Assembly: GCA_965205865.1 (NCBI GenBank)
Contig: CBDBHR010000024.1
Coordinates: 128,001-192,000, forward strand
Reading direction: 5' to 3'
DNA from: a bacterium
GTDB lineage: Bacteria > SAR324 > NAC60-12
Length of the DNA stretch: 64,000 nucleotides
A model generated the notes under the pieces. It was not told the origin of the DNA, made no database searches, and saw nothing but the letters and a program-made list of their open reading frames with translations. This document shows positions 328 through 57,167 of the stretch, piece by piece (position 1 is the first letter of the stretch; each line of letters opens with the position of its first letter). The position numbers and the translations under genes were made by a program.

Positions 328-2735
328 ACATGACTTTCGGCTAAATAAATATTAGCGAAATTTAAGTGTCATTTTTCTTAACTTCTCGATATAATCGCCG
401 TATGCCAGGTGAAATAAAACCTTAAGCCCAAGGCGATTTCGTTGAGAACTATCAAAAAAGAAAAAGAAAGACTAGCAGAAATTCTTAAACTCTTTAAAAA
501 GGTTGAAGAGTCAGTTCTCTCTGTGAAAGAATATTTTCAAAACCACCAAACTCCTATCAGTATGAGGCAGTATAGTCGCTTAAAGAAACGCTATACGCAG
601 CAAGGCGTAGCTGGTCTTGCCGATCAGCGTCAGGTCGGTAACGCACGAAAAATTAAACCCGACGAGATCAGTTTGGTTCATGGAACCTTGGCCTATAATC
701 GCAACCTAACGTCCCAATCATTACAAGATGAATTGCAAAATCAATGGGGAATTACGGTAGGCCAACGTCGTATTGAGCAAATCCGACAAGAGTTTAATTT
801 AACGCGCATTAAGTCACAAACGATTCAGCAGGAAACACTCCCGTTTGCCGGTATTGAAATTTTTTCAGCCTTAGCGCAATATGTTGGTCTTCTCGAGCAT
901 TGGAATATTACGATTCAACAACGTTTACAACAAGTCCAAGAAACGCCATCGCCAAAAGCCAATAAAGGCGGAGATCATATCCGAGCCCGTCATCGTGATG
1001 GCACCTTCTCTGCCCGCTACAATCGTCTGGCCAGCGTTCGTCATACCAAGTTTGCCTCGATCACCGATAAAGTCAAAGATAAAGATTTCAGTAGATTCAC
1101 CCTTTCTCAATTAAAAGCCGAGAATTTAAAGCGAAAAAATTTAGCCCTCTTGTTTTTACCTTTAGTCACCAATAACGGTGCCATGCGTCATGTGAATACC
1201 CCCTTAGGGAATGCTTTACGATACGCCTGTGGGTACAATTATAAAAATGCCACCCTGGACAAATACCTCAGAGAACTCAAGTATCTTCAAGTCTCGGCAG
1301 ACTTGATTAACTGCAACGCTCGGTTTTGGCATCAATTTTGGCAACAATATGATGCTCCGGATCACAAAGTGGCCTGTTATTATATCGATGGTAATGTTAA
1401 ACCTTTGTGGTCCTCCAAACGCTGCCGCAAAGGTAAAGTGACGATGATGGGCCGCGTGATGGGATGTATCGAACAAGTGGTGATCCATGATGGCCATGGC
1501 CGGCCACTTTATCTGCGAACCTTTTCTGGCCATGCGGACTTACGAGAAAATGCGCTGCGGACGATGGATGAATTGGACATCGTTTTAAATAAAAAACGAG
1601 AGTCCCGCGCTAAAGAATCACCTGGCAGCCGCGCATTGATCATTGATGGGGCGGGCAATGCTGTTCAAACACTGAGAGCTTTTTCAGAATCGGACTATCA
1701 TTATATTACCATTCTCGATACCAATCAGATAGTAGATCGCAAATTTAAGCATCTGAAAGCGCCGCAACGTTATCAGTACGGTGAAGCCTTCCTGATTGAT
1801 TGCCGCATCGAGTTAATGGACTCAAAAGAATCAGGCTATCTCTACGAGAGCCGCGCGCTGCGGGTTCAGTGGGATAATGGTAAAGAATGCTGTTTAGTCA
1901 CCAGTATCCCCTCAAACCTCTTTTATGCTTCAGAAGTGGTCAAGGCTTATTTTGATCGTTGGCCCTATTGCGAAAAACAATATGCCCTGATGAAGGCCGC
2001 GACCTGTTTTAGTCAAGTGGTGGGTTATGGGAAAAAACTTTTGCCGGATGAAAATACTTTAGAAAAAATCGAAAAACTTCAAACCGACTTGCGAAAACTG
2101 CGGCAGGAATTAAAAATTCCGCTTTCGAGAATTACAGTCGAGGAGAAGAAACTCCAGGATTTATTTGAGAAAGAACGTCAATTTAAAGAAAGAAGCACAA
2201 TTAACAAAAAAGGCCAACGGGATCAATCTCAACGAAATCAGGAAAATCTTGAATCTTGTCAGAAGGATATCCGAAGGATTCAACGTCAAATAAAGACGAT
2301 AGAAGAAGCCTTCAAAAAACAGTTTCAGACTCTACGGCAAAAGAGCAAAGAATTCGCGCGTATCCAGGGTAAACGGAAAGTTTACCATGTCGATGTTGAA
2401 CTCGACCAACTAATGACCAGTTTTCGACTAACGCTGGCAAATCTTCTCGTTTTTCTGGCAAAGGAAATTTTAGATCATACGCCCATAGAAATGAATACCT
2501 TGATCCAGTCCATCTTATTTTTATCAGGAAGAATTGAACATCTCCCGGATCGTCGAAAAATTGTCATCAACAAAAATGAAAAAGATCCTCAGTTTATGAA
2601 TAAATTACAGAAGGGCTTATCGAAGCTTAACGCCCTAAAAATCAGGTACTCCAGCGGGGTGGTTTACGAATTTGTCTTGAACTAATAGACATTTAAATTT
2701 CGTATATTTTTGATATAGCCGAAAGTCATGTAATA
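324..2735 (+). mobile_element. Insertion sequence (~2.4 kb) with ~47-bp imperfect terminal inverted repeats, inserted in opposite orientation into a paralogous element
   Basis: Left end TATTACATGACTTTCGGCTAAATAAATATTAGCGAAATTTAAGTGTC; right end reverse complement TATTACATGACTTTCGGCTATATCAAAAATATACGAAATTTAAATGTC; single long ORF between them. Confidence 0.85.
442..2685 (+). CDS. Large DDE transposase (N-terminal HTH, IS4-superfamily-like catalytic core, C-terminal coiled coil), family unassigned
   Basis: 747 aa; HTH-like YTQQGVAGLADQR; putative catalytic YYIDG, LIIDGAG and YFDRWPYCE (Y-2-R-x-E-like); fills the element between the TIRs. Confidence 0.75.
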   Translation: MRTIKKEKERLAEILKLFKKVEESVLSVKEYFQNHQTPISMRQYSRLKKRYTQQGVAGLADQRQVGNARKIKPDEISLVHGTLAYNRNLTSQSLQDELQNQWGITVGQRRIEQIRQEFNLTRIKSQTIQQETLPFAGIEIFSALAQYVGLLEHWNITIQQRLQQVQETPSPKANKGGDHIRARHRDGTFSARYNRLASVRHTKFASITDKVKDKDFSRFTLSQLKAENLKRKNLALLFLPLVTNNGAMRHVNTPLGNALRYACGYNYKNATLDKYLRELKYLQVSADLINCNARFWHQFWQQYDAPDHKVACYYIDGNVKPLWSSKRCRKGKVTMMGRVMGCIEQVVIHDGHGRPLYLRTFSGHADLRENALRTMDELDIVLNKKRESRAKESPGSRALIIDGAGNAVQTLRAFSESDYHYITILDTNQIVDRKFKHLKAPQRYQYGEAFLIDCRIELMDSKESGYLYESRALRVQWDNGKECCLVTSIPSNLFYASEVVKAYFDRWPYCEKQYALMKAATCFSQVVGYGKKLLPDENTLEKIEKLQTDLRKLRQELKIPLSRITVEEKKLQDLFEKERQFKERSTINKKGQRDQSQRNQENLESCQKDIRRIQRQIKTIEEAFKKQFQTLRQKSKEFARIQGKRKVYHVDVELDQLMTSFRLTLANLLVFLAKEILDHTPIEMNTLIQSILFLSGRIEHLPDRRKIVINKNEKDPQFMNKLQKGLSKLNALKIRYSSGVVYEFVLN

Positions 2736-3701
2736 GGAGATGTAGTAGCAGAGCAGCGGGCCCATCATCGAATCACTGATAGTATCTCCCCAACACCGTT
2801 TCCAAAACTGCGCTAAATCTTGCAGCAGCAAGCTCGAAACCCCCAGGTACTTTAGTTCAGCGAGGTACTTGGTGATGGAACTCTGCTTGTAATTAAAGCC
2901 ACAAAAATGACCCAGGGTTTGCCCTTGAGCTGAGTTGACATTGCGAACCTGACCATTGTTACTCACCATCGGCAGAGACACAACGGCCATACTCTTTCGA
3001 GCAAGCGTCTCAGGATGATCTCGGATGATGTTCATAGAATGCCAGTTCTTGCTCTCACGTTTCTCGGACACCGATGCGAATCGAGCAGCCCTCACCTCAC
3101 TACGTCGGTTGTATCGCCCGGTGAATTTCCCGGCCTTGTCTTTTCCCTTCGTGTTCGCCTGGCCACGATTTGCCTCAAAGGCCTCTGTTTCCTTTAAGGC
3201 ATCAACCGCCCTGCAAATCACGTCGGCTGTTCTTTGCGGCCAACCCAAATGGTAAGCTAGCGCGACGATCAGTTCAAAGCCACCCAAAGCGTTCGAGTCC
3301 GTTCGTGGTGCTTTGACGAGCTTTGCTGGCCTGCCAACCTTCCGTTTTAGCTTCGGGTCGATTCGCGCCAAAGCGCGGCCTGTCGCAGAGACACTGAGGT
3401 CGCAACTGAATTCCTCCATGAGCGCTTGCTGCAACCACTCCAGCGCAACATCAGGGTTTTGTTTGATGCATCCTCTCAAGAAAGATTCTTGCTCCAGCGT
3501 TATTTTACGATTGCCCCCTCTCTTGCGCTGCTCCTTCAGGCCCGCTAGCCCGGACTCTCGCAATTGTCGTCTGTAATTGTAGTACTGCACGCGACTGAAA
3601 GGGACAGCTTTCCTCTCAAAGAATTCTGAAAGGGACAGCTTTGTTGTCTCTATCTGCTCAACCCACTTGACGATGGATGCAATTCTCTCTGTGTCGTTCA
3701 T
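2736..3701 (-). pseudogene. N-terminal half of the outer large DDE transposase, interrupted at CYYI by the inner element
   Basis: ORF 2682..3701 is homologous to the N-half of the 747-aa protein (RFASVSEK/KFASITDK, CGFNYK/CGYNYK, KYLAELKYL/KYLRELKYL) and reads into the inner TIR after PLLCYYIS. Confidence 0.85.
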
Positions 3702-3785
3702 ATACCAGTAAGATCTACGAGTTAGTTTGCAATCTCACTGGTATTCTACACCTATTAATTATAAACGCAAATTATTTTCCTTATA

Positions 3786-3803
3786 TCCGAAAGTCATGTA
3801 TTA
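3786..3803 (-). mobile_element. Left terminal repeat of the outer transposase element
   Basis: Reverse complement TAATACATGACTTTCGGA matches the inner-element TIR core TATTACATGACTTTCGG; lies ~100 bp upstream of the 3701 start. Confidence 0.75.
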
Positions 3804-3832
3804 GTAAAATTGTATTTTTCTGCCAGACACTA
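3804..3832. mobile_element. Probable IS630-family terminus inserted at a TA in the intron RT gene
   Basis: ...TTTTCTGCCAGACAC-TA ends like the ACAC-TA termini of the IS630 at 9342-10520; the RT frame (YLHYVLD) resumes exactly at that TA. Confidence 0.5.
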
Positions 3833-4481
3833 TCTACATTATGTCTTAGACTTGTGGTTTGAAAAGGTCGTGAAACCCCGAATGAGGGGGGAAGCTTACC
3901 TGATACGCTATATTTATGATTTCGTTGTGTGTTTCCAATATCGTTCGGACGCTCTACGCTTCCATGACGTCTTACAGAAACGGTTAAGGAAATTTTCACT
4001 GGAACCAGAACCTCAGAAAACCCGATTAGTCGAGTTTGGTCGGTTTTCAGACCACCATGCAAAACGGAAAGGGAAGCGGATGGAAACCATTTACTTCCTG
4101 GGGTTTACTCATTACTGTACACGTCATAAAGGGAACTTTATGGTAGGGCGTAAAACAGAAAAGAGTCGCTTAAGGCGGAGTCATTCCAAACTCCACCAAT
4201 TGATGCGCAAAAAGAGGCACGATTCATTGGAAGAACAGGCCAAGGCCATTAATCGAAATCTGCGAGGCCATTACGCTTACTATGGTCTGGGTGGAAATAA
4301 AGTTGCTCTATATCAGCTTTACAATGACACCAAACGATACTGGCGTAAGATGCTTTCCAGTCGGAGTCAGAAGAGTTATGTGACTTGGGAAAAGGTTGAC
4401 AAGATTCAAGCCTTATTTCCGATACAGCGACCTAAACTTATCTTGCCCTATGAGGCAATGAAAGCACGCGCTGTGATGTGA
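3831..4481 (+). pseudogene. 3' part of a group II intron reverse transcriptase/maturase
   Basis: YLHYVLDLWF (RT4/5), RYIYDF (degenerate YxDD), FLGF (RT7), domain X LRGHYAYY. Confidence 0.85.
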
Positions 4482-4494
4482 ATCAGATTCTGAA

Positions 4495-4567
4495 GAGCGT
4501 AGTGCGGTAGTTCCGCACGCTACGTTCTTTGGGGCAGGGAGCACAAAGGTGTTTCCCTGTACCCGGT
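4495..4567 (+). ncRNA. Group II intron domains V and VI (3' end)
   Basis: GAGCGTAGTGCGGTAGTTCCGCACGCTACGTTC is a DV hairpin with the AGC triad, followed by GGGGCAGGGAGCAC...GTGTTTCCCTGTACCCGGT. Confidence 0.8.
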
Positions 4568-4672
4568 CGGGTTGGCGACTTTCACAAGGCTCAACTATTT
4601 AGGCACCGTCAGACGAAAGAGACGGAAACCGATAAACCGAACCTAAATGTACATGCCTGTCTGCTACTCTAC
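4568..4672 (+). ncRNA. 3' tail (long domain VI) of a second group II intron
   Basis: AGGCACCGTCAGACGAAAGAGACGGAAAC...AACCTAAA...CTACTCTAC resembles the long-DVI 3' ends of bacterial group IIB introns (recalled pattern). Confidence 0.55.
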
Positions 4673-5107
4673 CCATTTCATTCGATTATAAGTCTTTCAG
4701 TTCTAAGATTCCCTCAAACCCTTTTCTTCGCAGACCTGTAATCAGTTGTCGATCACCAGTCAATAATTTTGCTTCAAGACTGGGCCTAACAAAGACAACG
4801 CAAGAAAAGGAGTATCTTTCTCATCAATATCCTTGCATAGCTCATACGCTGTTTGAACAACAGGACTGGGAATCAATTGCTCATTAACGAAAGAGATATG
4901 AGAAAGAAGGGATTGAAGGGAAGTTAAAATCTCTTCTTCAGCCAATTTAGAAAACTGTTCGATTCGAGGACGATGTTTGAATATTTCAACGAAGAGAAAA
5001 TTACAGGTATGGCACTCATATTGAGGATTGAAGAAGACAGTTTTACTTTTGTTTTCTGCACTCAACAATGCTGAAAAAAAGATATTGCTGTCAACTACGA
5101 TTTTCAT
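4664..5107 (-). pseudogene. PIN-domain toxin, frameshifted near the C-terminus
   Basis: IVVDSNI and DEKDTPFLAL motifs; the expected SLEAKLLTGDRQL tail is in another frame after an apparent 8-bp extra TTAGGCCC. Confidence 0.75.
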
Positions 5108-5297
5108 TTAGCATTCTCTCTTTATTCTCATTCCACCAACTTGACTTGATTTCTTCTGACAATTGCCAAATATCTTCTTCTGTGGCTTGGCTTTTATTTG
5201 AGGTTTCCAGTAGAGATAAAAAGGAAAGAACGTCCTTATCTATTTTACCAATATCAAATTCAACCCTGATTTTGCCATTTTCAATGGATGTTTGCAT
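5091..5297 (-). CDS. Small antitoxin overlapping the PIN toxin start
   Basis: 68 aa ending LSEEIKSSWWNENK; overlaps the PIN gene in a TA layout. Confidence 0.65.
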   Translation of the reverse strand: MQTSIENGKIRVEFDIGKIDKDVLSFLSLLETSNKSQATEEDIWQLSEEIKSSWWNENKERMLNENRS

Positions 5298-5446
5298 TAC
5301 ACCTCCTCAATTTTCAGGTTGACAAGTATCTTGATGAATAATAGTGGTATTATTTCATATTTCTTTAAATAAATCAGTAACAAACTGGTACAATATGGGG
5401 CATGGTCATATTTTCAGCCACCGAGAAATCGTTCCCACGATCCTCG

Positions 5447-5726: not shown

Positions 5727-5821
5727 CGATCCTCGTGGGAATGCAGTTTTTGACCCTCGCCGCGTCGGACTCTGCGGTCAAAGGGGACGCAGAGCGTCTA
5801 AGCATGCATTCCGCCGCAGAG

Positions 5822-5949
5822 AGGCTGTGAAAGAATTCGAAATTTAGCTGTTTTTTGCGATTTTTCAAAAAACCGTAGTCAATAATTTCAGTGATTTAAG
5901 GTTTTCACAATTATGAAAAATCGTCAAAACTGGAATTCTTTCACAGCCT
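5822..5949. mobile_element. 128-bp MITE with 17-bp perfect TIR
   Basis: AGGCTGTGAAAGAATTC / GAATTCTTTCACAGCCT; flanked by CAGAG at 5817-5821 and 5950-5954 (boundary uncertain by 1 bp). Confidence 0.8.
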
Positions 5950-6949: not shown

Positions 6950-7224
6950 TGATTTACCTTTCTACATAACAAGAATATCTGATAGTTTTAAAACAAAAAA
7001 TCTACCTATTTTTTACTGAAAAGTCATTTTTTTACGTCTCGTCGAAAATCAGGCCTTTGTTGTTGTGTTATTCAAGTAAATAACCTAATAACAAAAGCCT
7101 GACTCCATTTCAAAACGAAACTTCTTCAGAAGTCTTATTGTTTTTAGAAACAGTTTTGTGTATGGTTTTCCGAAGTTTTTCCAAATTTTAAATGAAACAG
7201 CTTCTTTCCAAAATCGAGTTTTTT

Positions 7225-8243
7225 ATGAACACACTGACAAATCGAAGCATGATCCTTTCCAGTCGCCCGGTGGGTTTTCCGAAGGAAAGTGATTTCCAAT
7301 TGCTCGAGAGTGCATGCCCCACTCCCCGTGAGGGAGAACTTTTGATCAAAACCCTCTACCTCTCTGTCGATTCCTACATGCGTGGACGGATGAATGCCCA
7401 AGAATCTTATGCTCCTTCTTTTAAATTGAATCAACCCATGGTGGGAAGAGCCGTCGGACAGGTGGCGGAATCCAAAAACTCTCAATTTGCCACAGGAACT
7501 TTTGTTTTTGGCTTCATGCCGATGCAAGAATATTCGCTCAGTGACGGTCAAGGGTTGCGTCTCATTGACCCGGACCTTGCTCCTTTGGAAGCCAATCTGA
7601 GTGTCTTTGGGAGCACAGGGTTGACTGCCTATTTTGGTTTGATGGATATTGGCAAACCGCAACCCGGGGAGACGGTATTGGTTTCAGGGGCCGCTGGTGC
7701 AGTGGGTTCTATGGTGGGACAGATTGCAAAAATTCAAGGATGTCGAGTCGTAGGAACTGCAGGTTCCGAATCAAAAGTGCAACACCTTCTCAAGGATTTA
7801 AAGTTTGATGCTGCCATCAATTACAAAACTGCCAATCTTCAACAAGCGTTGTCGGAAGCCTGTTCCCAAGGCATTGATGTTTATATTGACAATGTGGGGG
7901 GAGAAGTGACCGATTGTGCATTGGGATTGATCAATTCAAAAGCAAGAATTGTGTTGTGTGGTCAAATTTCCCAATACAATGCAGAATCTCGTGAAATGGG
8001 GCCCCGCAATCTTTTTCATTTGATTGCCAAAGTGCCTTGATGAAAGGATTCATCATTTATGATTACCAAGTTCACTACGATGAGGGGTTGCAACACATGG
8101 CGCAGTGGTACCAGCAAGGCAAACTCCAACATCGAGAAACCATTGTTGATGGCCTAGAAAACATGCCCCAAGCTTTCTTAGGACTCTTCAAAGGAGAAAA
8201 CTTGGGCAAACAAATCATCAAAATTGCTGAACCGGATTCTTAA
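7225..8243 (+). pseudogene. NADP-dependent oxidoreductase (YncB/CurA/PTGR1-like), frameshift at ~8030
   Basis: LSVDSYMRGRM, VSGAAGAVGS; the C-terminal half continues in ORF 8037..8243 (GLENMPQAFLGLFKGENLGK). Confidence 0.85.
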
Positions 8244-8247
8244 CATT

Positions 8248-8668
8248 ATGGAACTGCTCACACTTGAAGAAACGTATGCCATTTTCCATAAAGAGTTCCC
8301 CGACAGTCCCATTGAAATTCTCGAATCACGCCCCTCTTATGTTAAAGTGAGGACGCCTTCTGAGAGAAAAAAATTTTTGCGCCCTGGAGATTCGATTGCC
8401 GGGCCAGTTCTAATGGGGTTTGCCGATGTGGCCATGTACGTTCCTTATGATTACCAATCTGGGGGAAATCGGGTATCGTTCAGTCACTTCGAACTTCAAC
8501 ATGACTTTTCTCAGACGGGCTATGCCTGGAGAGATGGTTGCTGAAGTTACTTTGATCAAAACTGGAAGACGCCAATCCGTTGGCGATATAAAATTTTATA
8601 CAGGAGGTTCGCAAGAGACAGTCGCTCACGTCGTTTCTATTTATGTGTTCGTCGATTCGGCAGGTTGA
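8248..8668 (+). pseudogene. PaaI-family thioesterase, frameshift at ~8440
   Basis: LRPGDSIAGPVLMGFADVAMY, then VTSNFNMTFLR in the next frame. Confidence 0.8.
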
Positions 8669-9341
8669 GTCATGTTTATTTAAAAAAGGAGGAAAGCATG
8701 AGTTACGAAACGCTTCTTGTTGAAAAAAATGACGGGCTGACCAAAATCACCCTCAATCGCCCCAACAATGCCAATGCGTTGAATATGGCATGGGGCAAGA
8801 ATTGATGAAAGTCTCGATCGAATGTGATGAATCCGCAGACACCCGTGCCGTGCTTCTGACCGGCAGTGGCAAAATGTTTTGTGCCGGAGGCGATCTGCCC
8901 AGTTTTGCTGAATCGGAAGAACACTTTTATGGCACTTTACTAGAACTCACCACCTACTTGCATGCGGCGATCAGTCGATTTGCAAGAATGAATGCTCCTT
9001 TGATCATTGCGGTCAATGGAATGGCTGCCGGTGCAGGAATGAACATTGCGTGCATAGGAGATTATGTGATTGCTGCCGAATCGGCTCGTTTCACTATGGC
9101 CTACACCAAAGCAGGTCTCTCTCCTGATGGAAGTTCGACTTACTACCTTCCTCGTGCCATTGGTGCACGTCGTGCCAAAGAATTGATGTTGACTAATCGG
9201 ATCCTCAGTTCCCAAGAAGCCCTCGATTGGGGGGTGATCAACCAAATCTGTCCAGACGATCAGTTCCTCACAGAAGCAGAAAATCTTGCCCAACAATTGG
9301 CTCAAGGCCCTACAACCGCTTTTGGCGCAGTCAAAGAACTA

Positions 9342-10520
9342 GTGTATTGCCTGTTTAATACATTGTATTATTGGTCATTTGGTAGACAGGTTTGAGTTTG
9401 TTGATAATTTCTTCGGCAGTTTTAGTCCAGACATAGGGTTTTGGGTTGCGATTGTGTGTCTCGATGTAACTATGGATGGCTTCGGTCAACTCGAGCACGC
9501 TTTTGAAGGCGCCTCGTCGAATCCGTTCTGCAGTGATCTTGCCAAAAAAGCGTTCCACCATGTTCAGCCATGAGGAGGAAGTAGGAATGAAATGCGGGTG
9601 AAATCGCGGGTGTTTTTTGAGCCATTCTTTCACCTTAAGATGTTTGTGGGTGGCGTAATTGTCCAGGATCAAGTGTACCTGCAGTTGCTTCGAGGTAGTC
9701 TTGTCAATAAGACGCAGGAAGCGCAGATACTCTTGGTGTCGGTGCCGTTTTTCACAGCGAGCGAGCACTTCCCCTGTCTGCGTATTCAAAGCAGTAAACA
9801 GACAGCAGGTGCCATGACGGATATAATCATGAGTTCTGGTGCCATTGCGCCCTGGTTTCAGTGGCAGACCTGGCTGGGTGCGATCGAGTGCCTGGATTTG
9901 TGATTTCTCATCGACGCTCAAGACCAGCGCTTTCTCAGGAGGATTCATGTACAAACCGATGACATCTTTCAGTTTCGCAGTGAAATGCTTATCATGCGAC
10001 AACTTAAATGTTTTTTCCAGATGAGGCTTGAGGCGATGGGCCTTCCATACTTTACCGACGGTTGTCTTGCCTACGCCAACTGCCTTGGCCATCGATCGCG
10101 TGCTCCAATGGGTACGGTCCTCAGGCTTCTCTTCAATGGTTTTCTTCACAATCTCCTCGATTTTATCCGCTCCATAAATGCGTGTCCTGCCAGGCCGCGG
10201 ATCATCATTGAGACCTGTTATTCCTTTTTCAACAAAGCGCCGTCGCCACTTTCCAACGGCATTACCGCTGGTTCCAAGCGTTTTGGCAATTTCTTGATTC
10301 TTAAGGCCATCAGCAGCCAACAGGATGATGCGCGCACGACGAGTGTCTCGCATCGCTCCGGTATGACGGCGTGCGGTTTTGCCCAATTCATCCCGTTCTT
10401 CCCGGGTCAGTTTTATACTTGGTGCTTTTCTCATGCTGTCTCCATATATGCAAAAAAAAGGACAGCTCGTAGTATAGCAAACCAAGGATTTTTTTACACA
10501 TTAATAAAAGAGCGACACAC
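9342..10520 (-). mobile_element. IS630-family insertion sequence with TA target duplication
   Basis: TA at 9340-9341 and 10521-10522; ends GTGT.../...ACAC; removal restores the hydratase frame. Confidence 0.9.
9355..10434 (-). CDS. IS630 transposase
   Basis: VDEKSQIQAL, ILDNYATH, SSWLNMVERFF. Confidence 0.92.
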   Translation of the reverse strand: MRKAPSIKLTREERDELGKTARRHTGAMRDTRRARIILLAADGLKNQEIAKTLGTSGNAVGKWRRRFVEKGITGLNDDPRPGRTRIYGADKIEEIVKKTIEEKPEDRTHWSTRSMAKAVGVGKTTVGKVWKAHRLKPHLEKTFKLSHDKHFTAKLKDVIGLYMNPPEKALVLSVDEKSQIQALDRTQPGLPLKPGRNGTRTHDYIRHGTCCLFTALNTQTGEVLARCEKRHRHQEYLRFLRLIDKTTSKQLQVHLILDNYATHKHLKVKEWLKKHPRFHPHFIPTSSSWLNMVERFFGKITAERIRRGAFKSVLELTEAIHSYIETHNRNPKPYVWTKTAEEIINKLKPVYQMTNNTMY

Positions 10521-10923
10521 TAGTGACTGAATCCAGTACGGAGAGTTTAGAAACTCAAATGGAAAAGGAGGCTCGTGCCATTGGGCGTATGGCACAAGGA
10601 GTGGATGCCAAAGAAGGCATTGCTGCATTTCTTGAAAAACGAAAGCCTGTTTTCCAAGGAAAATAAAAATCAGTATGCCTGAGAGCCGAGCCGTTCCAAT
10701 ATGTGGAAAACCCTGATTGTTTTTATTTCATTTTCAATAAAAAATGGCTTTCATTTACTAGGCTATCTGATTTTCACTGAATTCAATTGGATCTACGGAA
10801 TGAAGGACTCTCAAAAAAATTACGATTTTCCGAAAAATATTCTCATTACGGTAATAAGTGGAAATTTAGGCATGAAAAAAGTAATAAGGGGACGTTATTT
10901 CTATATTTTTTGTGTAATATCAC

Positions 10924-10993
10924 AATAAGTGGACAATATGTCCATCCATAATGTAATACCATGGACAAACGTCTACTTATTGCACTGTTCTAT
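10924..10993 (+). other. attI-like integron recombination site heading the cassette array
   Basis: GTTCTAT at 10987-10993 is complementary to ATAGAAC of the next attC; preceded by an imperfect inverted repeat AATAAGTGGAC..GTCCAT / ATGGAC..GTCTACTTATT; no R'' AAC box. Confidence 0.55.
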
Positions 10994-11030
10994 TTACAAA
11001 ACTAACACGTAAAGAAGATAGGAAACCCAC

Positions 11031-11336
11031 ATGCCCAAGCTATATGAATATTTTGGAATCACTATCTTTTTTTATTCTAATGAACACGAACCTATTCATG
11101 TCCATGGCCGTCATCAAGGAAAAGAAAGCAAAGCAGAAATTCTAGTTGAGGAAGGAGAAATCATCGAAATACGAATTACAACGGTTCCTGGTAAGAAACC
11201 GCTAGAATCTTCTCAATTCTCTGATTTCAGAATCTTTGTCGAACATTATGCTGAGGAGATTATCCAAAGATGGGTAGATTATTTTGTATACAATCGAAAA
11301 ATGGTATCTGAACGAATTATGACGAGGATCAGATGA
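11031..11336 (+). CDS. DUF4160-family TA protein (cassette 1)
   Basis: MPKLYEYFGITIFFYSNEHEPIHVH signature. Confidence 0.8.
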   Translation: MPKLYEYFGITIFFYSNEHEPIHVHGRHQGKESKAEILVEEGEIIEIRITTVPGKKPLESSQFSDFRIFVEHYAEEIIQRWVDYFVYNRKMVSERIMTRIR

Positions 11337-11593
11337 CAGAGGTAATGGATCAAATCATTGATATTCATCAAGTCGACTATATTGAGAAATACAAACTCAA
11401 AATTACATTTAGTGATGGAAAAGAACAAATGGTCGATTTTGGGCCCTTTCTTAAAAAATCAAAACATCCGGATATACAAAAATATTTGGAGATAGAGAAA
11501 TTTAAAAAATTTTCTATTATAGAAGGAAATCTTGATTGGAATGATTACGAACTATGCTTTCCAACTATAGATCTATATAGAGGACAAATTTAA
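11333..11593 (+). CDS. DUF2442-family antitoxin (cassette 1)
   Basis: YKLKITFSDGKEQMVDF; ATGA overlap with the upstream gene. Confidence 0.8.
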   Translation: MTEVMDQIIDIHQVDYIEKYKLKITFSDGKEQMVDFGPFLKKSKHPDIQKYLEIEKFKKFSIIEGNLDWNDYELCFPTIDLYRGQI

Positions 11594-11594
11594 A

Positions 11595-11673
11595 ATAGAA
11601 CAAGTCTTTTAGCTGATCATTTGGGGCGCCGCTACGCTCTACCCCAAGCCAATATCTCAATTCTGCGTTCGAT
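11595..11673 (+). other. attC site 1
   Basis: ATAGAAC-AAGTC...GC-GTTCGAT with central TTGGGG/CCCCAA stem, directly after a stop codon. Confidence 0.7.
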
Positions 11674-11758
11674 TCAAAATAATATTCTGACTTTCATCCT
11701 CTTCATTAAATCTACTTTTGCAGATCGAGACACTGCTTTTATTCAACACTAAAGGAAA

Positions 11759-12376
11759 ATGAAAAGAATGAACACAGTAAATAAACAATTTAAGACTTTC
11801 GATCCTAAACCTTCATTAAAATATGCTTTATTGCTTTTAGCGGAAGCAAGAATCAAAAAATTTGCATTGATCGGAAAATTAGCAATGTGGGTCCATTTGG
11901 AAGATGAAAGCCAACATCAATATACGAAAGACGTAGATTTCGCAATCATACTTAGCGATACAAAAAAGATTGAGGAGCTCGTCAATAGTAAAAATTTGAA
12001 TTTCAAGCAGTTGCAAATAGGAGGCATTGGTTTGAGAGAACAAGGAATAAATATAGATTTTATTGACAGACGTTTACATGGGGTGACATCCCTATTCAAT
12101 GAGGCGATAGAAAACACGTCTACAGAAGTTTCTGTTGAAGAGGAAACTATTCCCGTTGTTTCCTTAGAATATCTGGTTGCAATGAAAGCTGTTTCAGGTG
12201 AACCTAAAGATGATAATGATTTAAGAATATTACTGAGTCTAGAGAAACTAAATTATGCAAAAGCAAAAGAGATAGTAGTCAAGCATCTAGGACCAATTAC
12301 AGGTGAGCGATTAGATGTTTTTGCTAGAACCGCTAATATCTTACCCAAAAGAGGACCATATAATTATGGGCAGTAG
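11759..12376 (+). CDS. Nucleotidyltransferase-fold protein (DUF6036/AbiEii-like), sole gene of cassette 2
   Basis: ALIGKLAM, TKDVDF, LEYLVAMK...PKDDND motifs. Confidence 0.65.
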   Translation: MKRMNTVNKQFKTFDPKPSLKYALLLLAEARIKKFALIGKLAMWVHLEDESQHQYTKDVDFAIILSDTKKIEELVNSKNLNFKQLQIGGIGLREQGINIDFIDRRLHGVTSLFNEAIENTSTEVSVEEETIPVVSLEYLVAMKAVSGEPKDDNDLRILLSLEKLNYAKAKEIVVKHLGPITGERLDVFARTANILPKRGPYNYGQ

Positions 12377-12402
12377 CCTTTGAGCTTTCAGTTCTGAACA
12401 AA

Positions 12403-12528
12403 ATCGAACAAGCGGATTGAGGCTATTTGTGGGGTGCGTTTTTTTGACAATGTTTTCGGCAGAGACAAATATTCCGCTTTTTCACAATTTAGGGCATCTC
12501 CACAAAATCCTCATCCTAAACGTTCTGT
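12403..12528 (+). other. attC site 2
   Basis: ATCGAAC-AAGCGGATTGAGG...CCTCATCCTAAAC-GTTCTGT; imperfect palindrome; R'' complementary to the previous GTTCGAT. Confidence 0.8.
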
Positions 12529-12623
12529 CAAAGCATTCCCTCATATATTCAAACCTTATTAGATCTTAAATTTCCTCAAGAAACGTATTGCTATTATACA
12601 TACAATAAGATACTCTTTCATTT

Positions 12624-12921
12624 ATGCAAATCAATTACACTTATCAAGACATCAGCTTTCAATGGGACAGTCAAAAAAGCTTCGACTAATTTGAAAGGTT
12701 ACAATGTTTCTTTTGAAGAAGCTTGTGAAGCTTTTCTTGATCCATTTGTCCAGGTTATTAGCATTCATCAAGGTAGTGGGGAAACAAGAGAAGCAATTTT
12801 AGGGATGACTACCAATTGAAAACTTCTGTATGTCGCTTATACGGTAAAATCAGATGAAATATTTTGTATTATTTCCGCAAGAAAAGCAACGGGGCTAGAA
12901 AGGTTGAATTATGAAGAATAG
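12624..12921 (+). pseudogene. BrnT-family toxin with frameshift and premature stop (cassette 3)
   Basis: FQWDSQK..., VSFEEACEAFLDPF, IISARKA in broken frames; TGA at ~12817. Confidence 0.7.
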
Positions 12922-13192
12922 TGATTTGAAAAAAAGACTTCAAAAAGAACGACCCATGACATCTGTCACAATACGCATACCTCAAGATGTAATAGAAGAC
13001 TTGAAATCTGTTGCACCACAATTAGGTTTTTCCGGATATCAACCATTGATCAGAGCATATATTGGGCAAGGTCTTCGTCAAGATTTAGCAAGACTACAAG
13101 CAAAACCAGACATTAGATCCTTTATAGATCGATTAAAAAAACATGGAGTTGATGAAGATATTATCAATGAAGCAATAGCTGAAACTCAATAG
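12911..13192 (+). CDS. Antitoxin of the cassette 3 TA pair (RHH/BrnA-like)
   Basis: RPMTSVTIRIP...GYQPLIRAYI. Confidence 0.7.
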   Translation: MKNSDLKKRLQKERPMTSVTIRIPQDVIEDLKSVAPQLGFSGYQPLIRAYIGQGLRQDLARLQAKPDIRSFIDRLKKHGVDEDIINEAIAETQ

Positions 13193-13211
13193 AGTGAAGA
13201 AGATTAATATG

Positions 13212-13334
13212 ACAGAACAAGTCGTTGCTCCCGATTTTCACCATTGCCGCTTACGTTGCAAAGAGCAACATAAAGCTATAATTTTTGTGCTTCCTCAAAA
13301 GAGATGGTGAAAACGGGAGAACTCAACGTTAAGC
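13212..13334 (+). other. attC site 3
   Basis: ACAGAAC-AAGTCGTTGCTCCCGATTTTCACCAT...ATGGTGAAAACGGGAGAACTCAAC-GTTAAGC; strong stem; R'' complementary to the previous GTTCTGT. Confidence 0.85.
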
Positions 13335-13409
13335 CTCTAGATTCATCATAGATAAACCGTGAAACTTTTTTAACTTGACTAGTACATCGTTTGTGCATAC
13401 GTTTTATAT

Positions 13410-13688
13410 ATAGGATACATTTGGGATGTAAATAAAGCAGCAATCACGTTAAAAGAACGCAATATTGATTTTGCTGATTGCGTTGGCGTATTTGAAGATG
13501 ACCATAGTCTATACATAGAAGATTTATTTCCCTCTTACGGAGAAGAGCGGTTTATAGCAATAGGTATGGATTTTTTGGGTCGTATCCTCACTGTGGCTTA
13601 CACGTATCGGGACGAAGATATTCATATTATCTCTGCTCGAAAAGCTAGCACAAATGAACGGATGGCATATGAACAACAAGAAAGATGA
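13410..13688 (+). pseudogene. BrnT-family toxin lacking a canonical start (ATA) (cassette 4)
   Basis: Open frame (I)GYIWDVNKA...IDFADCVGVF...EERFIAIG...IISARKAS; ATA where ATG is expected. Confidence 0.7.
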
Positions 13689-13947
13689 AATGAAACCAGA
13701 GTATGATTTTTCTCAAGCGAAACAAGGGCCAATCGCAGTTTCCCCGACTGGAAAAACACGAATTACCATCCAAATTGATACAGATATATTAAATTGGTTT
13801 AAAAGCCAAGTACACCAGGCTGGAGGAGGAAATTATCAAACGTTGATCAACTTAGCTCTTCATGAGCATGTCCAAAGTCAACAAGAACCTTTAGAAGAGA
13901 CTCTAAGAAGAGTTATTCGGGAAGAGATGAAGCAAATTTCTAGCTAA
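13669..13947 (+). CDS. BrnA antitoxin (cassette 4)
   Basis: EYDFS, KTRITIQID, NYQTLIN. Confidence 0.85.
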   Translation: MNNKKDEMKPEYDFSQAKQGPIAVSPTGKTRITIQIDTDILNWFKSQVHQAGGGNYQTLINLALHEHVQSQQEPLEETLRRVIREEMKQISS

Positions 13948-14808
13948 ACCCACGACGAAATCATCCGCATAGCGAATGATGTAAACTTCCCCCCGAGCTT
14001 CCCGCCTTCTCCATTGATTGACCCATAGATCTAAAACATAGTGCAGGTAGATATTTGAATAGATTGGAGAAACTACCGAACCTTGTGGTGTTCCGACCAC
14101 CGTTTCAGACCACTTCCCCTCTTCGATGACTCCGGCGCGCAACGTTTTCTCTACTAAACGCAGAATCCTTTTGTCGGAGATTCGATGCTCGATAAATTTC
14201 AGCATCCAATCATGCTGAATTGTGTCGAAAAATCCTTGAATATCCGCATCTAAGATGTAGCTCACTTTCCGTTGGGTAATGACCACATACAAAGCGTCTA
14301 AGGCTTGATGTTGGCTTCGTCCGGGTCGGAACCCGTAACTAAACCCAAGGAAATCCTCCTCATAGATCGATTCCAACGTCCAAACAAGGGCTTGTTGTAC
14401 GATCTTGTCTTCAAGTGCGGCTATTCCGATTGGCCTTTGACGGCCATCCGGTTTAGGAACCCACACTCGCAGAGAAGGGTGAGGACGATAACGTTCTTGG
14501 TGGATCCTCCCGTGCAGATCGTTAATCCGCTCCAGGAGATTTATGCCATACTCATTCCAGGTCTCCTCGTCCACTCCCGCCGCTGAGTTGCGATTGAGAT
14601 CAAAGTAAGCTCTCCGCAGTAAGTCAGGGTTGATGTGATGAAAGAGATTGTTGAATTGAAGATGGGGGTTCCTCTTCGCCCTTTGGCGCACCCTGCTTAA
14701 ACCGCTCTCTGATTTTACCGGCCTCTGAGTTCCGAACACAGGAGGGCAAGCAGAATTCCTCTCAGCCAAGTCCCTTTGCTCCACAGGCTCCGTTGATTTC
14801 CTTTGCAT
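13948..14808 (-). pseudogene. Group II intron reverse transcriptase, truncated after YADD
   Basis: AAGVD, PKPDGRQRPIG, SYGFRPGR, DADIQGFFD, GTPQG, RYADDF. Confidence 0.9.
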
Positions 14809-15248
14809 TGTTACTCTCTACAAATGATCTCATTGTTCGCCGCTTCATCGCTACTACGAACTTGTCCGACTTCCTGAAGACGTAGATATCGGGGTTATTT
14901 ATTAATTTTCCCGATCCGACTACCAATGGAATGTTGACAGTCGTCTTCAGGATCTCCCAGGTTCCGCTCAAGAAACTTCCACACATGCACCGGGTCTTCG
15001 ACTCCGCCAGGCTCGACCGGGACTCACGCTAACGCCTTCGGTTGATGTTGCCTTCCCCACCAGACTACAAGGTCAGCACCTGAAACTATGATTTCGGAGC
15101 TCAATACCGAGCCTATGTTCTCCCCTGTCAACGCTTAGCGCCTATCCTTGCGAATAACCACTCATGACTCGGGGACTCGGCGGGTCGTTACTGCCTTACC
15201 GAGTAAGAGACTTTCACTCTCTATTTCTTGCCAGCTTTCCTGGCGCAC
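13948..15248 (-). mobile_element. Group II intron, 3'-truncated
   Basis: 5' end GTGCG at 15248; domain I-like RNA (...TAAGCGTTGACAGGGG...GTATTGAGC...); the RT ORF stops abruptly after YADD. Confidence 0.85.
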
Positions 15249-15271: not shown

Positions 15272-15844
15272 TTATGCCTCAAAAGTCACTTTCGTATAAA
15301 ACTCATCGATGTGGATTTTGAAATCAATAGAGGGCAAGAGAACCTCTCCCCCAATATAGGTTTGAATAATCCATTTCAAATCACTTTCTTCTGATTTTCG
15401 GTAGACATCCACCCGTTTCAAATATTGATCTACCAAAACATAATCTTCCAATGAATTTAATGTTTGATATTTTCTAAATTTATCAATTTGGTCATACCGA
15501 GCTGTGGATTTAGAGAGCACTTTTACAATCAATTTGGGATGTGCAATATATTGATCACTCGATTCATTCATACAGGTTACCGAGGCATCTGGATAAACAT
15601 AATCTTGGTGGTTTTCATCAATTATTTTGATTTTCATATCAGAGCCATGGAGCACACAAGGGGATGATTTTAGATGATTCCCTAACATAATAATTAGATT
15701 GGTTGTAATAATTGAATGGTTCCGGCTCGCTCCTGCCATGGCATAAACCTCACCATTGTAGAATTCATGTCTAAGATGAGAGCGTTTTTCCAGTCCGAAG
15801 TATTCATCAACTGTATAATGCTTAATTAATTTTCTTGCCAACAT
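15272..15844 (-). CDS. Uma2/DUF820-family endonuclease
   Basis: HEFYNGEVYAMAGAS, YVYPD, K(for E)VLSKST, YVLVDQ. Confidence 0.85.
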   Translation of the reverse strand: MLARKLIKHYTVDEYFGLEKRSHLRHEFYNGEVYAMAGASRNHSIITTNLIIMLGNHLKSSPCVLHGSDMKIKIIDENHQDYVYPDASVTCMNESSDQYIAHPKLIVKVLSKSTARYDQIDKFRKYQTLNSLEDYVLVDQYLKRVDVYRKSEESDLKWIIQTYIGGEVLLPSIDFKIHIDEFYTKVTFEA

Positions 15845-16217: not shown

Positions 16218-17006
16218 TTAGTTTCCTTTAAAAATTGGATTTCTTTTTTCAAGGACTGCTTGTAGGCCTTCGTCGCTGTCTTCTGTATTCCGAGAGAGAA
16301 TATTCTGATCGACATCCATGTGCATGATTGCCCGATCCAAAGCAGAGCTGATCATATTGATGCTCTGTTTGATCATCTGAGTGGGAATGGGCGGTTGGTG
16401 GGCGTATTCATCGGCCAATTGTAAGGCCTTTTCCATCAATTGTTCACATGGCACCATCTCGTCCAGCATTCCCCAATCTAGCAACGTTTGTGCTTTTTCA
16501 TGATTGCCCAGCATGACCATTCGCTTTGCTCGGGCCGGTCCAATCAAATGCACACACAATGGCAACCCCACCCACATCAAGTTGATGCCCAAGTTGACTT
16601 CAGGGTATCCAAAAAAGCAATCTTCCGAGCCAATCCGAAAATCACAAGCCGTCGGAATACAGGCACCTCCCCCCAAAGCCGCTCCTTAAACTGCGGCAAT
16701 GGTGACTTGATTGATTTCAAAAATACTCCTCAACATTCTTCCGCCCAGTCCAGTTTCACGGCGCTTCAACAACAAAGAAGGTTGTTCTTTAGGTGGAGGT
16801 TCTTTAAAATCCCAACCGGCACAGAAATGTTTTCCGGCTGCCGCAAACACCACAACACGGGTTTCTTCATCATATAAAAAGCTTTTGGACACATGTTCAA
16901 TTTCTTCCATGAATCCTCGATTCAACGCGTTGGCACTTTCTGGTCGATTGAACGTCACGATGCTGATATGCCCTTGACGTTCTTTTGTTAAATATTGATA
17001 GTCCAT
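16218..17006 (-). pseudogene. Enoyl-CoA hydratase/isomerase with in-frame stop at 16686-16688
   Basis: TFNRPESANAL, FCAGWD, IAAV*GAALGGG; both ORFs share a frame. Confidence 0.85.
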
Positions 17007-17310
17007 AAGAGTTTCTCCCGTAAACGAAATGAATGATGGATTTTGAATTTCTTTGAATACTGAATTATTGAGGTTTTGTCCATATTTATGCACATAACTC
17101 TGCCTCTGAATTCAACGAGAAAGCGGCAACATTTTTAGAAAAAATAAGGATTTTCTAATTCACACCGCAGCGGCGCCGAGCGATGATACAGACAAAGTTG
17201 AAACAACCGTCGATGCTGAATGACAAAAATGGAAATTGCTGTCCTCTACACAATGTGTTATTCTGTTGAAAAGACGACAATTTTTACCTCTCCTTCCCAT
17301 CGAGGACATC

Positions 17311-18096
17311 ATGACTTCTTTAGAATCCGTCAAAAACCACTCCTCTGCAAGACGGTTGCCTCCCTCTGCCAAGGAGCCCCTTATGGTCAGTGAGGCCGAG
17401 TATTGGAAGATGTATTACGAACACCCGGATGTTCAATATGAATGGAACAATGGCCTCTTGGAGGAAAAACCTATGCCCGATTTTCTAAGCATCTCCCTCT
17501 ATCAATGGTTCCTCCACTTATTAAAAGAGTATTTGACTGTCTTTCCTATCGGACGGATGATGGTATTAGAAATGGGCTTTCGTTTGGAGCTGGGAAAGAA
17601 AAAGGTGAGTATTCGCAAACCGGATTTGGCCGTGATTCTCCACTCCAATCCTGTCGAGGCCAAACCGTTGGATCGTTCGTTTCATGGTGTGTGTGACCTC
17701 TGTATAGAGTTTTTATCCGACTCGACTCCCGCGGAGGTAGAACGGGATACGGTCCACAAAAAAGAAGAATACGCCAAAGCAGGGGTGGCGGAATATTATA
17801 TTTTAGACCGTTTGCGCATGCGCACCACCTTCTATTTTCTCAATGAGCAGGGGGTTTATGAAAGGATGAAGCATCAAGAGCCCGGTGTGATTCATTCCCG
17901 GGTTTTGGATCGGTTCGCTTTTCGTCTGGAAGATTTAAAAAAACAGGTGGCCTTTGAAAGATTAATTGAGGATCCTCTCTACCAACCCTTCCTCCTGAAA
18001 AGCTTCCAACAAGAGCGACAACAAAAAGAAGAAGCGCTTGCGGAAGTCGAACGGCTCCGTGCACTCCTCCAGGATAAAGATTCCGATCCCCGCTAA
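17311..18096 (+). CDS. Uma2/DUF820-family endonuclease with C-terminal coiled coil
   Basis: YEWNNG, RKPD, IEFLS, KKEEYAKAGVAEYYILD. Confidence 0.85.
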   Translation: MTSLESVKNHSSARRLPPSAKEPLMVSEAEYWKMYYEHPDVQYEWNNGLLEEKPMPDFLSISLYQWFLHLLKEYLTVFPIGRMMVLEMGFRLELGKKKVSIRKPDLAVILHSNPVEAKPLDRSFHGVCDLCIEFLSDSTPAEVERDTVHKKEEYAKAGVAEYYILDRLRMRTTFYFLNEQGVYERMKHQEPGVIHSRVLDRFAFRLEDLKKQVAFERLIEDPLYQPFLLKSFQQERQQKEEALAEVERLRALLQDKDSDPR

Positions 18097-39000: not shown

Positions 39001-39429
39001 ATCCCCCAAGAAACCCTGGTTCTTTTCGATTTCGTGGATTTTTCCCAGCATTCTCCGGGCGGCATGGTAATTTAATCCGATTTTTTCTGATAATTGTTGA
39101 GCCGTCGTCTCCCCATTGCATGCAGCCACATAATAAATCCCCCAAAACCAGTAACGCAGCGGAGTCCGAGTCCGGTGCATCAGAGTTCCCGCGATTAGCG
39201 AAGTCTGGTGTTTACAATTTCTGCATTGCAGTATTTGACGTTTTTTCAGGGCATCGTATCGGTGACTACCGCAGACTGAGCACACATAACCGGCTGGCCA
39301 ACGGAGGTGGGAGAGGTGATTGCGGCAGACTTCATCGTTCGAAAAAAGCTTTTGGATCTCATGAAAGGAATGGGCTTGAGTTGTTTCATCCATTTTGCGC
39401 TCCCACATCTGAGATGGTTTAATGAACAC
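33082..39429 (-). CDS. 2115-aa multidomain sigma54 activator: IS1595-type zinc ribbon/HTH + Ser/Thr kinase-like + AAA ATPase + helical region + GAF + PAS + sigma54 AAA+ + Fis HTH
   Basis: [80 protein letters not shown]. Confidence 0.88.
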
Positions 39430-48832: not shown

Positions 48833-48862
48833 AACCTATTCCTCATTGCTTTGCTTCCCTTT

Positions 48863-56214: not shown

Positions 56215-56289
<75 letters not shown>

Positions 56290-56446
56290 CTCATTTGAAA
56301 AAATATTCGGACTATGTCCGACTCTGTCACATTGATGTTCCTGGCAGTACTATAAGCAATGACTTCACTCCTATTTCAAGGGAGAAAAAATTCTCTTTTG
56401 CCACAAGCACCATAAAACAATTCACTCACCATCGCAAATGCGATGT

Positions 56447-56522
<76 letters not shown>

Positions 56523-56573
56523 AGGAATTCCTATTTTTTCAACATTGCAAATTTCGTTCTCAAAGGGTCAAAT

Positions 56574-56650
<77 letters not shown>

Positions 56651-57153: not shown

Positions 57154-57167
57154 CTGGCAAAGCAAGA

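Follow-up and report, generated by a model that had tools for sequence, protein, structure and literature searches.

Genes for toxin-antitoxin pairs that stand in a row on a bacterial contig, with no recombinase gene beside them, raise the question of how they came together. We addressed this question for one locus in a stretch of 64,000 nucleotides (hereafter the window; positions are counted from its first letter) from an uncultured bacterium of the SAR324 lineage (NCBI GenBank assembly GCA_965205865.1, contig CBDBHR010000024.1, positions 128,001 to 192,000). In a comparison of its MnmG protein, SAR324 MAG proteins at 74% identity were the top matches among those with a name, and other matches reached 98-99%. 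An initial annotation had described an integron cassette array that lacks an integrase and whose core sites mostly carry GTTC instead of the canonical GTTRRRY. Our analysis makes it likely that the region from 10988 to 13949 consists of integron-type gene cassettes. The element is an attC site cluster without an integron-integrase (CALIN), namely a short, decaying array of four cassettes with toxin-antitoxin genes and without a nearby integrase gene (intI). Swapped boundary sequences, sites built like attC, units that each hold a single gene or operon, their common orientation and a low G+C content (0.37-0.38 at 10-14 kb, compared with 0.44-0.49 on both sides) support the integron-cassette reading. 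What we observed directly is the swap at the boundaries, the layout of the sites, the genes carried and the lack of intI in the 64 kb.

Boundaries, genes and attC sites of the cassettes

As described for integrons, the crossover divides the R' core after its G and ahead of TT, and positions 2-7 of R' go with the next cassette (PMC3518468). Because these positions belong to the next cassette, the first 7-mer of a cassette complements its own R''. The array contains four core sites.

10987-10993, + strand: core 1, GTTCTAT; G-TT crossover, with cassette 1 beginning at 10988; complement of ATAGAAC at 11595-11601
11667-11673, + strand: core 2, GTTCGAT; complement of ATCGAAC at 12403-12409
12522-12528, + strand: core 3, GTTCTGT; complement of ACAGAAC at 13212-13218
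13328-13334, + strand: core 4, GTTAAGC; fits the canonical GTTRRRY

All words quoted in the initial annotation were found in their places, both by reading the sequence and by a script, and its central claim, that complete cassettes are bounded by exactly complementary 7-mers, holds for all three of them (7/7 in each, 21/21 bases in total). The R'' and R' ends within one site are complementary less well (6/7, 5/7 and 4/7 for sites 1-3). In 3/3 complete cassettes, the cassette start thus complements its own R'' and not that of the preceding site. The nine positions outside GAAC/GTTC vary from unit to unit; when GAAC and GTTC are taken as anchors, the variable positions are complementary in 9/9 cases, for which we calculated a chance of about 4^-9 = 4e-6. 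This offset swap is the footprint of integron recombination at G-TT.

In the proposed mechanism, every cassette would formerly have been a circle, inserted by an IntI-type tyrosine recombinase, and the last six bases of each R' core would be part of the following cassette. To mimic the excised circle, a script appended to each site the six bases with which its own cassette starts. In the predicted minimum free energy (MFE) structures of the bottom strands, the R boxes of these circle forms contained 7/7, 7/7 and 6/7 pairs, compared with 0/7, 4/7 and 0/7 in the array. We infer IntI as the agent of these events, and likewise their timing.

The units delimited by the crossovers are as follows.

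10988-11667, + strand: cassette 1, 680 bp; DUF4160 gene (11031-11336) overlapping a DUF2442 gene (11333-11593)
11668-12522, + strand: cassette 2, 855 bp; gene for an AbiEii/AbiGii-like nucleotidyltransferase of 205 aa (11759-12376)
12523-13328, + strand: cassette 3, 806 bp; brnT pseudogene (12624-12921) and a 93-aa open reading frame (ORF) in the brnA position (12911-13192)
13329-13949, + strand: cassette 4, truncated; brnT (13383-13688) and brnA (13654-13947)

Cassettes 1-3 are complete and span 10988-13328; they measure 680-855 bp and hold a single gene or operon apiece, always on the + strand. Two-gene pairs of toxin-antitoxin type occupy three of the four cassettes, and the remaining one carries a lone AbiEii-like toxin-family gene. 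The DUF4160/DUF2442 genes of cassette 1 (Pfam PF13711, E 3.7e-10; PF10387, E 4.5e-8) form a toxin-antitoxin-like pair, and there is a weak NCBIfam match to the antitoxin DhiA under its cut-off. The 205-aa protein of cassette 2 matches nothing in Pfam or NCBIfam; proteins homologous to it go by the name 'nucleotidyl transferase AbiEii/AbiGii toxin family' and contain PF09970, PF19502 or PF08843. It has 130 relatives at E<=1e-3, one of them at 98%, with Desulfococcaceae, Desulfobacterales and SAR324 among them. The brnT gene of cassette 3 is broken by a frameshift in an A6 run (12673-12678) and by an in-frame TGA (12817-12819). The 93-aa ORF that follows it appears intact and has no Pfam match at 1e-5; from its place after brnT and its likeness to cassette 4, it is probably brnA. 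Cassette 4 encodes both partners (BrnT_toxin, E 1.8e-24; BrnA_antitoxin, E 7e-9), although its brnT has no ATG, GTG or TTG ahead of the conserved Trp. The initial annotation had a fourth cassette start at GTTAAGC (13328); this start is confirmed, although the cassette is without an attC, only GCTAAAC being left before intron sequence.

Three attC sites separate the four units.

11595-11673, + strand: attC 1, 79 bp; R'' ATAGAAC, spacer AAGTC, weak L box, spacer TCTGC, R' GTTCGAT
12403-12528, + strand: attC 2, 126 bp; R'' ATCGAAC, spacer AAGC, L'' GGATTGAGG, L' CCTCATCC, spacer TAAAC, R' GTTCTGT; one bulged base (A) on the R''-L'' arm
13212-13334, + strand: attC 3, 123 bp; R'' ACAGAAC, spacer AAGTC, L'' GTTGCTCC, L' GGAGAAC, spacer TCAAC, R' GTTAAGC; a single bulged base (T) on the R''-L'' arm

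The lengths of attC sites range from about 55 to 141 bp. The lengths given for the three sites in the initial annotation (79, 126 and 123 bp) are correct, and all sites lie 3' of genes that are on the + strand. Their placement directly after stop codons holds for site 1 (1 nt), but not for sites 2 and 3 (26 and 19 nt). The sites share a common plan: R'' (7 nt), a spacer of 4-5 nt containing AAG, L''...L', a 5-nt spacer and GTT. Every R'' (NNNGAAC) directly precedes AAG, and the conserved triplets AAC, at the end of R'', and GTT, at the start of R', are present in 3/3 sites. Otherwise the three sites differ greatly in length and sequence, and a MAFFT alignment of them misaligned their right ends.

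Sites 2 and 3 fold as an R box, unpaired spacers of 4-5 nt, an L box and a variable loop. Their bulged bases can be set beside the extrahelical bases of attC, which are described as sitting on the R''-L'' arm (PMC3518468). The bottom strand of site 3 has a folding energy of -26.1 kcal/mol (z -5.4, to -6.6), equalled by 0 of 200 shuffles. For site 2, the MFE structure is the R/L-box hairpin, but its energy does not stand out (z -0.4 for the array form and -2.4 for the circle). The description of the sites as imperfect palindromes agrees with the R/L-box hairpins into which the bottom strands of sites 2 and 3 fold, but not convincingly with site 1, a poor palindrome. The stem of the latter is a short TTGGGG/CCCCAA, and its L box has 4/6 pairs by eye. 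At gathering score, Rfam gave zero matches within 10850-13947.

Integrase, head and tail of the array

The statement that no intI is visible was upheld: 0/52 ORFs of the window have a tyrosine-recombinase domain (PF00589), and a tblastn search of the 64 kb in all six frames, with IntI1 as the query, gave a best E of 1.4 and no intI remnant. Within the window, the attC cluster therefore has neither intI nor an intI pseudogene near it, as in a CALIN, and the combination of intI, attI and cassettes that makes a complete integron is lacking. Three features precede the array.

8665-9395 and 10523-10666, + strand: enoyl-CoA hydratase gene, interrupted by an IS630 element; ECH_1 on both sides
9355-10485, - strand: IS630-family transposase gene (NF033545, E 8.4e-84)
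10853-10986, + strand: head region before the first crossover, with repeats and inverted repeats

The IS630 element lies about 500 bp upstream of the array, inside the enoyl-CoA hydratase gene that ends at 10666. In this flank (7192-9395 and 10523-10666, + strand), three adjacent metabolic genes (oxidoreductase, a thioesterase-like ORF and the enoyl-CoA hydratase) each extend over two reading frames that overlap; either the genes are decaying or homopolymers were misread in sequencing. Another enoyl-CoA hydratase gene (16218-17093, - strand) is likewise divided into two ORFs (ECH_1 profile positions 2-95 and 100-250).

An attI-like inverted repeat and a direct repeat had been proposed to head the array. 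The direct repeat, AATAAGTGGA at 10853 and 10924, is real and 10 nt long, but it is unremarkable alone because six direct-repeat families of at least 10 nt occur in this 3.4 kb. The word AATAAG(T/G)GGA has three direct copies (10853, 10883 and 10924) and one inverted copy (10971-10982), which ends 4 nt ahead of the first GTT, and the head region also contains an inner inverted repeat, TGTCCAT/ATGGACA. The layout reported for attI1 comprises two inverted and two direct integrase-binding sites (PMC3518468). The AATAAGTGGA repeat set mimics this 2+2 layout, yet the repeated word is unlike an R box and the region does not adjoin intI; the attI-like designation is weakened accordingly, and the head may equally be a decayed attC or flank. 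The bottom strand of 10912-10993 folds with z -2.5 (2 of 200 shuffles as good) into a 12-bp L-type stem with 4-nt spacers and fits attC geometry; its R'' would be GTGTAAT (10912-10918), with AAT in place of AAC. A covariance model built from class 1 attC sites, described below, gave no match in 10853-10986. The head region may be a decayed attC, with the array once longer leftward, an attI remnant, or plain flank with a secondary insertion site of GWT type (preprint 10.1101/2022.09.11.507474).

The last of these possibilities belongs to an alternative in which the cassettes were never in an integron at this place, but were inserted in trans at a secondary site, attG (GWT), so that the head is ordinary chromosome. 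Insertion at attG, with the consensus GWT, is reported to have been shown experimentally for IntI1-3. There is no intI or remnant in the 10.9 kb upstream, the first crossover is a bare GTT in non-coding sequence 320 bp past a housekeeping-type gene, and small CALINs have been proposed to originate in this way (the same preprint, 10.1101/2022.09.11.507474). We nevertheless regard this origin as possible but rather unlikely: four cassettes would require either repeated insertion or a single circle with more than one cassette, the hairpin that stops 4 nt short of GTT (10923-10982) fits a decayed attC and so points to an array that formerly extended further left, and the right end needed as proof, a last attC followed by G-WT of the target, has been deleted.

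The attC remnant of cassette 4 is GCTAAAC at 13943-13949, which agrees in 6/7 positions with the expected R'', GCTTAAC. The stop codon of brnA is followed by GCTAAAC and then directly by the antisense strand of an intron reverse transcriptase (RT) gene.

13946-15248, - strand: 3'-truncated group II intron, antisense to the cassettes; 5' end GTGCG at 15248

Domains 1-4 of the intron are recognized by Rfam RF02005 at 14992-15214 (164 bits). Its RT ORF (13903-14808, RVT_1) stops just past YADDFVVG and covers positions 3-220 of 353 of the TIGR04416 profile. The solved structures nearest to this RT were separated by small margins, and the top four matches are what we take to be group IIC RTs. As its 5' exon, the intron has sequence that flanks a Uma2-family gene (15272-15844, - strand) on the 3' side, the intron's 5' end at 15248 being 23 nt downstream of the stop of that gene; this gene is one of two genes of the family (putative restriction endonucleases), the other being at 17236-18096 (+ strand).

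Similarity to a second copy of the intron ends at GTTT of the - strand (+ strand 13946-13949) and overlaps the GTTT of the R'' complement. A deletion at this shared 4-nt GTTT may have removed the 3' half of the intron, the fourth attC and the sequence between them; in this form we infer the way in which the array end vanished. The intron has the antisense orientation of group IIC-attC introns, whereas an insertion at TTGT/T with an attC hairpin as 5' exon is not found. Because the 5' exon is not attC and has no hairpin, and the 3' half of the intron is missing, it was probably a deletion, not an insertion, that brought intron and R'' into contact. Taken together, the lack of an integrase in cis, the broken toxin gene, the loss of the last attC and the IS630 copy just upstream suggest that the array would now be a fossil or, at most, serve as a substrate in trans.

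The second group II intron fragment (3810-4481, + strand) is 5'-truncated; it matches only positions 194-352 of the 353 in the RT/maturase profile and has the motif YIYDFVV instead of the YADDFVV in the copy beside the array. We considered it as the missing intron half, displaced by inversion, and ruled this out, as both fragments contain ...RY(A/I)(D/Y)DFVV; because they overlap in sequence, they are separate copies. A search of 3600-5400 at Rfam E<=1 gave no intron domain V/VI, and one miRNA-family match was taken as chance. Convergent with this fragment is a PIN_2 toxin gene with a small upstream partner (4687-5297, - strand). The PIN_2 gene looks frameshifted near its 3' end, with a continuation in another frame (...TGDRQLITGLRRKGFEGILELKDL). 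This pair was rejected as a second cassette, since its TTAGAAC does not represent an R'' but falls within the frameshifted coding sequence.

The variant R box and the weighing of the cassette reading

The C at position 4 that had been noted in the core sites is real in 3/4 cores and unusual, since 13/13 collected class 1 attC have A there. Correspondingly, G precedes AAC in all three R'', where 13/13 class 1 sites have T. The change is compensated, G:C for T:A, and for this reason the R box still pairs; the sites would thus use G:C next to the AAC/GTT triplet while R-box pairing is kept. According to published accounts, conservation among attC and attI sites is confined to the GTT/AAC triplet (PMC2811028, PMC4889954), and recognition depends on the folded structure and the extrahelical bases (PMC3518468). 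The deviation of the R box is accordingly real but modest. The presence of GAAC/GTTC and canonical forms in one array also argues against a changed specificity.

We examined the sites with a covariance model of class 1 attC. Class 1 attC were taken from plasmid integron loci found with IntI1 of R100 (nine loci, then four more), and the model was built from ten distinct sites downstream of cassette genes, with canonical R/L-box pairs. It found 3/3 held-out class 1 sites, namely dfrA5 (34.5 bits), aadA5 (29.9 bits) and dfrA17 (27.9 bits), the last despite a 94-nt loop; the dfrA5 test is not fully independent because that site resembles the dfrA14 training site. When the search was limited to 10800-14000, the top match was site 3 (13215-13334, 8.3 bits) and the second was site 1 (11595-11673, 4.7 bits) at exactly the proposed ends. 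Over the whole window, the only match was unrelated (5796-5849, 11.8 bits, E 1.9).

The initial annotation had deduced a lineage-specific integron system whose integrase lies elsewhere or was lost, and whose attC sites standard models may miss. The latter point gains indirect support from the success of the model on 3/3 held-out class 1 sites and on 0/3 window sites at window scale. The former was weakened by the canonical GTTAAGC in the same array and by the restriction of conservation to the triplet (as given in PMC2811028 and PMC4889954). In its strong form, a cognate integrase elsewhere in the genome would prefer GAAC/GTTC, and its attC would be systematically invisible to standard models. 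The contrast between C in 3/4 cores and A in 13/13 class 1 sites, the outcome of the model searches, the same AAG after all three R'' and a report that attC types resemble one another more closely inside a taxon than across taxa (PMC9668308) are in its favor. However, the core GTTAAGC implies that the enzyme that built the array accepted both forms; IntI1 is described as requiring the triplet only and as reading folded structure, not sequence (PMC2811028, PMC3518468); the three attC are very unlike in length and sequence, compared with the uniform sites of sedentary chromosomal integrons; and no integrase of this lineage was seen in the window. We therefore consider such a system unlikely. It is doubtful to the same degree that SAR324-lineage bacteria carry their own integron family, with G:C beside the cleavage triplet and A/T-rich R boxes, overlooked by models of mobile integrons. 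If this were true, the integron cassette pools of uncultured phyla would be under-counted, and the array would be a broken-off piece of such a system.

Several observations weigh against reading the region as an integron-cassette array at all. Within the 64-kb window, we saw neither an integrase nor a recognizable attI nor a recombination product. The bottom strand of site 1 folds at -5.9 kcal/mol (z +0.8, 164 of 200 shuffles as good; z -0.6 for the circle). With filters off, the covariance model detected 0/3 sites over the window at E<=10, and site 2 was absent (<3.5 bits) even from the search of 10800-14000. Position weight matrices of class 1 site ends scored the sites at -16.6, 1.4 and 4.8 bits, compared with best chance scores of 11.8-21.9 bits in 20 shuffles; these matrices have no discriminating power here. 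RYYYAAC fits 0/3 R'' and GTTRRRY fits 1/4 R' cores, although this consensus is descriptive, a strict pattern search having caught 2/8 distinct attC in five of the class 1 loci. Finally, a 71%-identical nucleotidyltransferase gene stands without such boundaries in Desulfococcaceae HSG8, the sole relative locus compared. There, the covariance model gave no match at E<=1 and no GAAC/GTTC boundaries were found; at 71% identity, this locus neither supports nor refutes the cassette reading. Two tandem hairpin-rich repeats of about 140 bp precede the HSG8 gene (locus positions 9700-10000), and a palindrome of about 80 bp, GTAGATGGAA...TTCCATCTAC (10615-10700), follows it, starting in the stop codon; by the AAC/GTT rule, the palindrome is not an attC.

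GAACAAG occurs 9 times in the window, compared with 10.3 expected, and is not enriched; its placement is non-random, 3/9 copies opening the three sites. A simple scan for AAC...GTT hairpins was unspecific (20 matches on the + strand and 17 on the - strand, site 3 being missed) and was not used as evidence. An account without any integron, in which toxin-antitoxin modules lie side by side with unrelated palindromes (REP-like repeats or terminators) between them and the 7-mers are due to chance or to small mobile units with terminal inverted repeats, could draw on the poor hairpin of site 1, the lack of GAACAAG enrichment, the other palindromic repeats that flank the Desulfococcaceae homologue and the cheapness of AAC...GTT shapes, but we judge it very improbable given the chance of about 4e-6 for 9/9 variable positions, the lack of any terminator-like site on the + strand of the array, the GTT...AAC hairpin, 5-nt spacer and L-box geometry between all units, which independent inverted repeats would not leave, and the alignment of the spacers with class 1 attC at exactly the proposed ends.

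Surroundings of the array and comparison with known systems

Several further genes, together with a tRNA cluster, lie elsewhere in the window.

1-276, - strand: fragment related to the ORFs at 442-3701, running off the window start
442-3701, + and - strands: ORFs of 747 aa (+) and 339 aa (-) with similar internal motifs; the only match is an IS630-like N-terminal helix-turn-helix (HTH); possibly an uncharacterized transposase family
33082-39429, - strand: unusually large fusion protein of 2115 aa with an IS1595-type zinc ribbon, Ser/Thr kinase, AAA_16 STAND-type ATPase, GAF, PAS, sigma-54 activator and Fis-type HTH
46274-51396, - strand: ResIII helicase-type restriction subunit, N6/N4 DNA methylase and RadC-like JAB protein in series
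52160-53311: Mutator-family transposase gene, after the restriction/methylase row
56218-57242, - strand: cluster of five tRNA genes, adjoining infC and rplT

A further candidate site, ATTGAACAAA at 16000 with GTTCGCT 53 nt on, has no fold (z -0.25) and was taken as chance. A blastn search of 10850-13947 against plasmid and phage collections returned zero matches, and a literature search for SAR324 together with integron found no report on that subject. The array thus adds hand-verified integron cassettes from the phylum SAR324. Its sites are a concrete case of attC with a compensated G:C change beside the cleavage triplet, uncalled by a class 1-trained model, and they can be used to try out attC detectors and to ask to what extent an integrase reads the R box.

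CALINs are a common, well-known kind of element, of which this array is a fresh example in another lineage, with a variant R-box base pair. The authors of IntegronFinder (Cury et al. 2016) give 279 CALINs in 2484 genomes, half of them in genomes without intI, 38% beside insertion sequences (IS) and 95% without a nearby intI pseudogene (PMC4889954). As in the CALINs described there, at least two attC stand in a row in one orientation, no intI is nearby, an IS adjoins the array (as in 38% of CALINs), and the cassettes are of unknown or toxin-antitoxin function and not of resistance (PMC4889954). In contrast, CALINs are defined operationally by the IntegronFinder covariance model, for which our class 1 model was a stand-in that made no calls at window scale, and the R box is GAAC/GTTC here instead of TAAC/GTTA. 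Apart from this variant, the element is an ordinary decaying CALIN of toxin-antitoxin cassettes amid IS and intron debris.

A close parallel is the CALIN of Halorhodospira halochloris, whose cassettes are reported to be of toxin-antitoxin type for the most part, with BrnT/A in three, and which has truncated group II introns and belongs to a genome without intI (Sonbol & Siam 2021, PMC7923331). Both arrays are integrase-less, are dominated by type II toxin-antitoxin cassettes with several BrnT/BrnA pairs among them, and contain one frameshifted toxin gene, a truncated group II intron and a mobile element at the edge, as far as the published description goes (PMC7923331). The H. halochloris CALIN differs in having ten cassettes, called by IntegronFinder, and class IIB intron fragments within cassettes (PMC7923331), whereas here the intron fragment, with its 5' end preserved, is located beyond the array and has the Uma2 flank as its 5' exon. 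Like the group IIC-attC introns discussed in the same work (PMC7923331), our intron is antisense to the cassettes and abuts an attC R''. Those introns are described as using TTGT/T for insertion and an attC hairpin as their 5' exon (PMC7923331); here the 5' exon is not an attC and the 3' half of the intron is lacking.

The plasmid-borne class 1 attC (aadA1, aadB, dfrA17 and others) share with our sites the length range, the AAC/GTT triplets, AA after R'', unpaired spacers of about 5 nt, an L'' starting with GTT, an L' ending with AAC (site 3), the R''-L'' bulge and the passage of R' positions 2-7 to the next cassette. They differ in having T:A instead of G:C at R-box position 4 and GCC-like instead of A/T-rich bases at R'' positions 1-3. 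Moreover, site 1 of the window is almost without an L box, and the model scores of 8.3, 4.7 and <3.5 bits compare with 27.9-34.5 bits for held-out class 1 sites. The correspondence is clearest for site 3, ACAGAAC AAGTC GTTGCTCC...GGAGAAC TCAAC GTTAAGC, which has the same layout as the class 1 dfrA17 site, GGCTAAC AATGC GTTGCAGC...GCTGAAC TTAAC GTTAGGC. The three sites follow the attC plan, yet they are far in sequence from the sites of mobile integrons.

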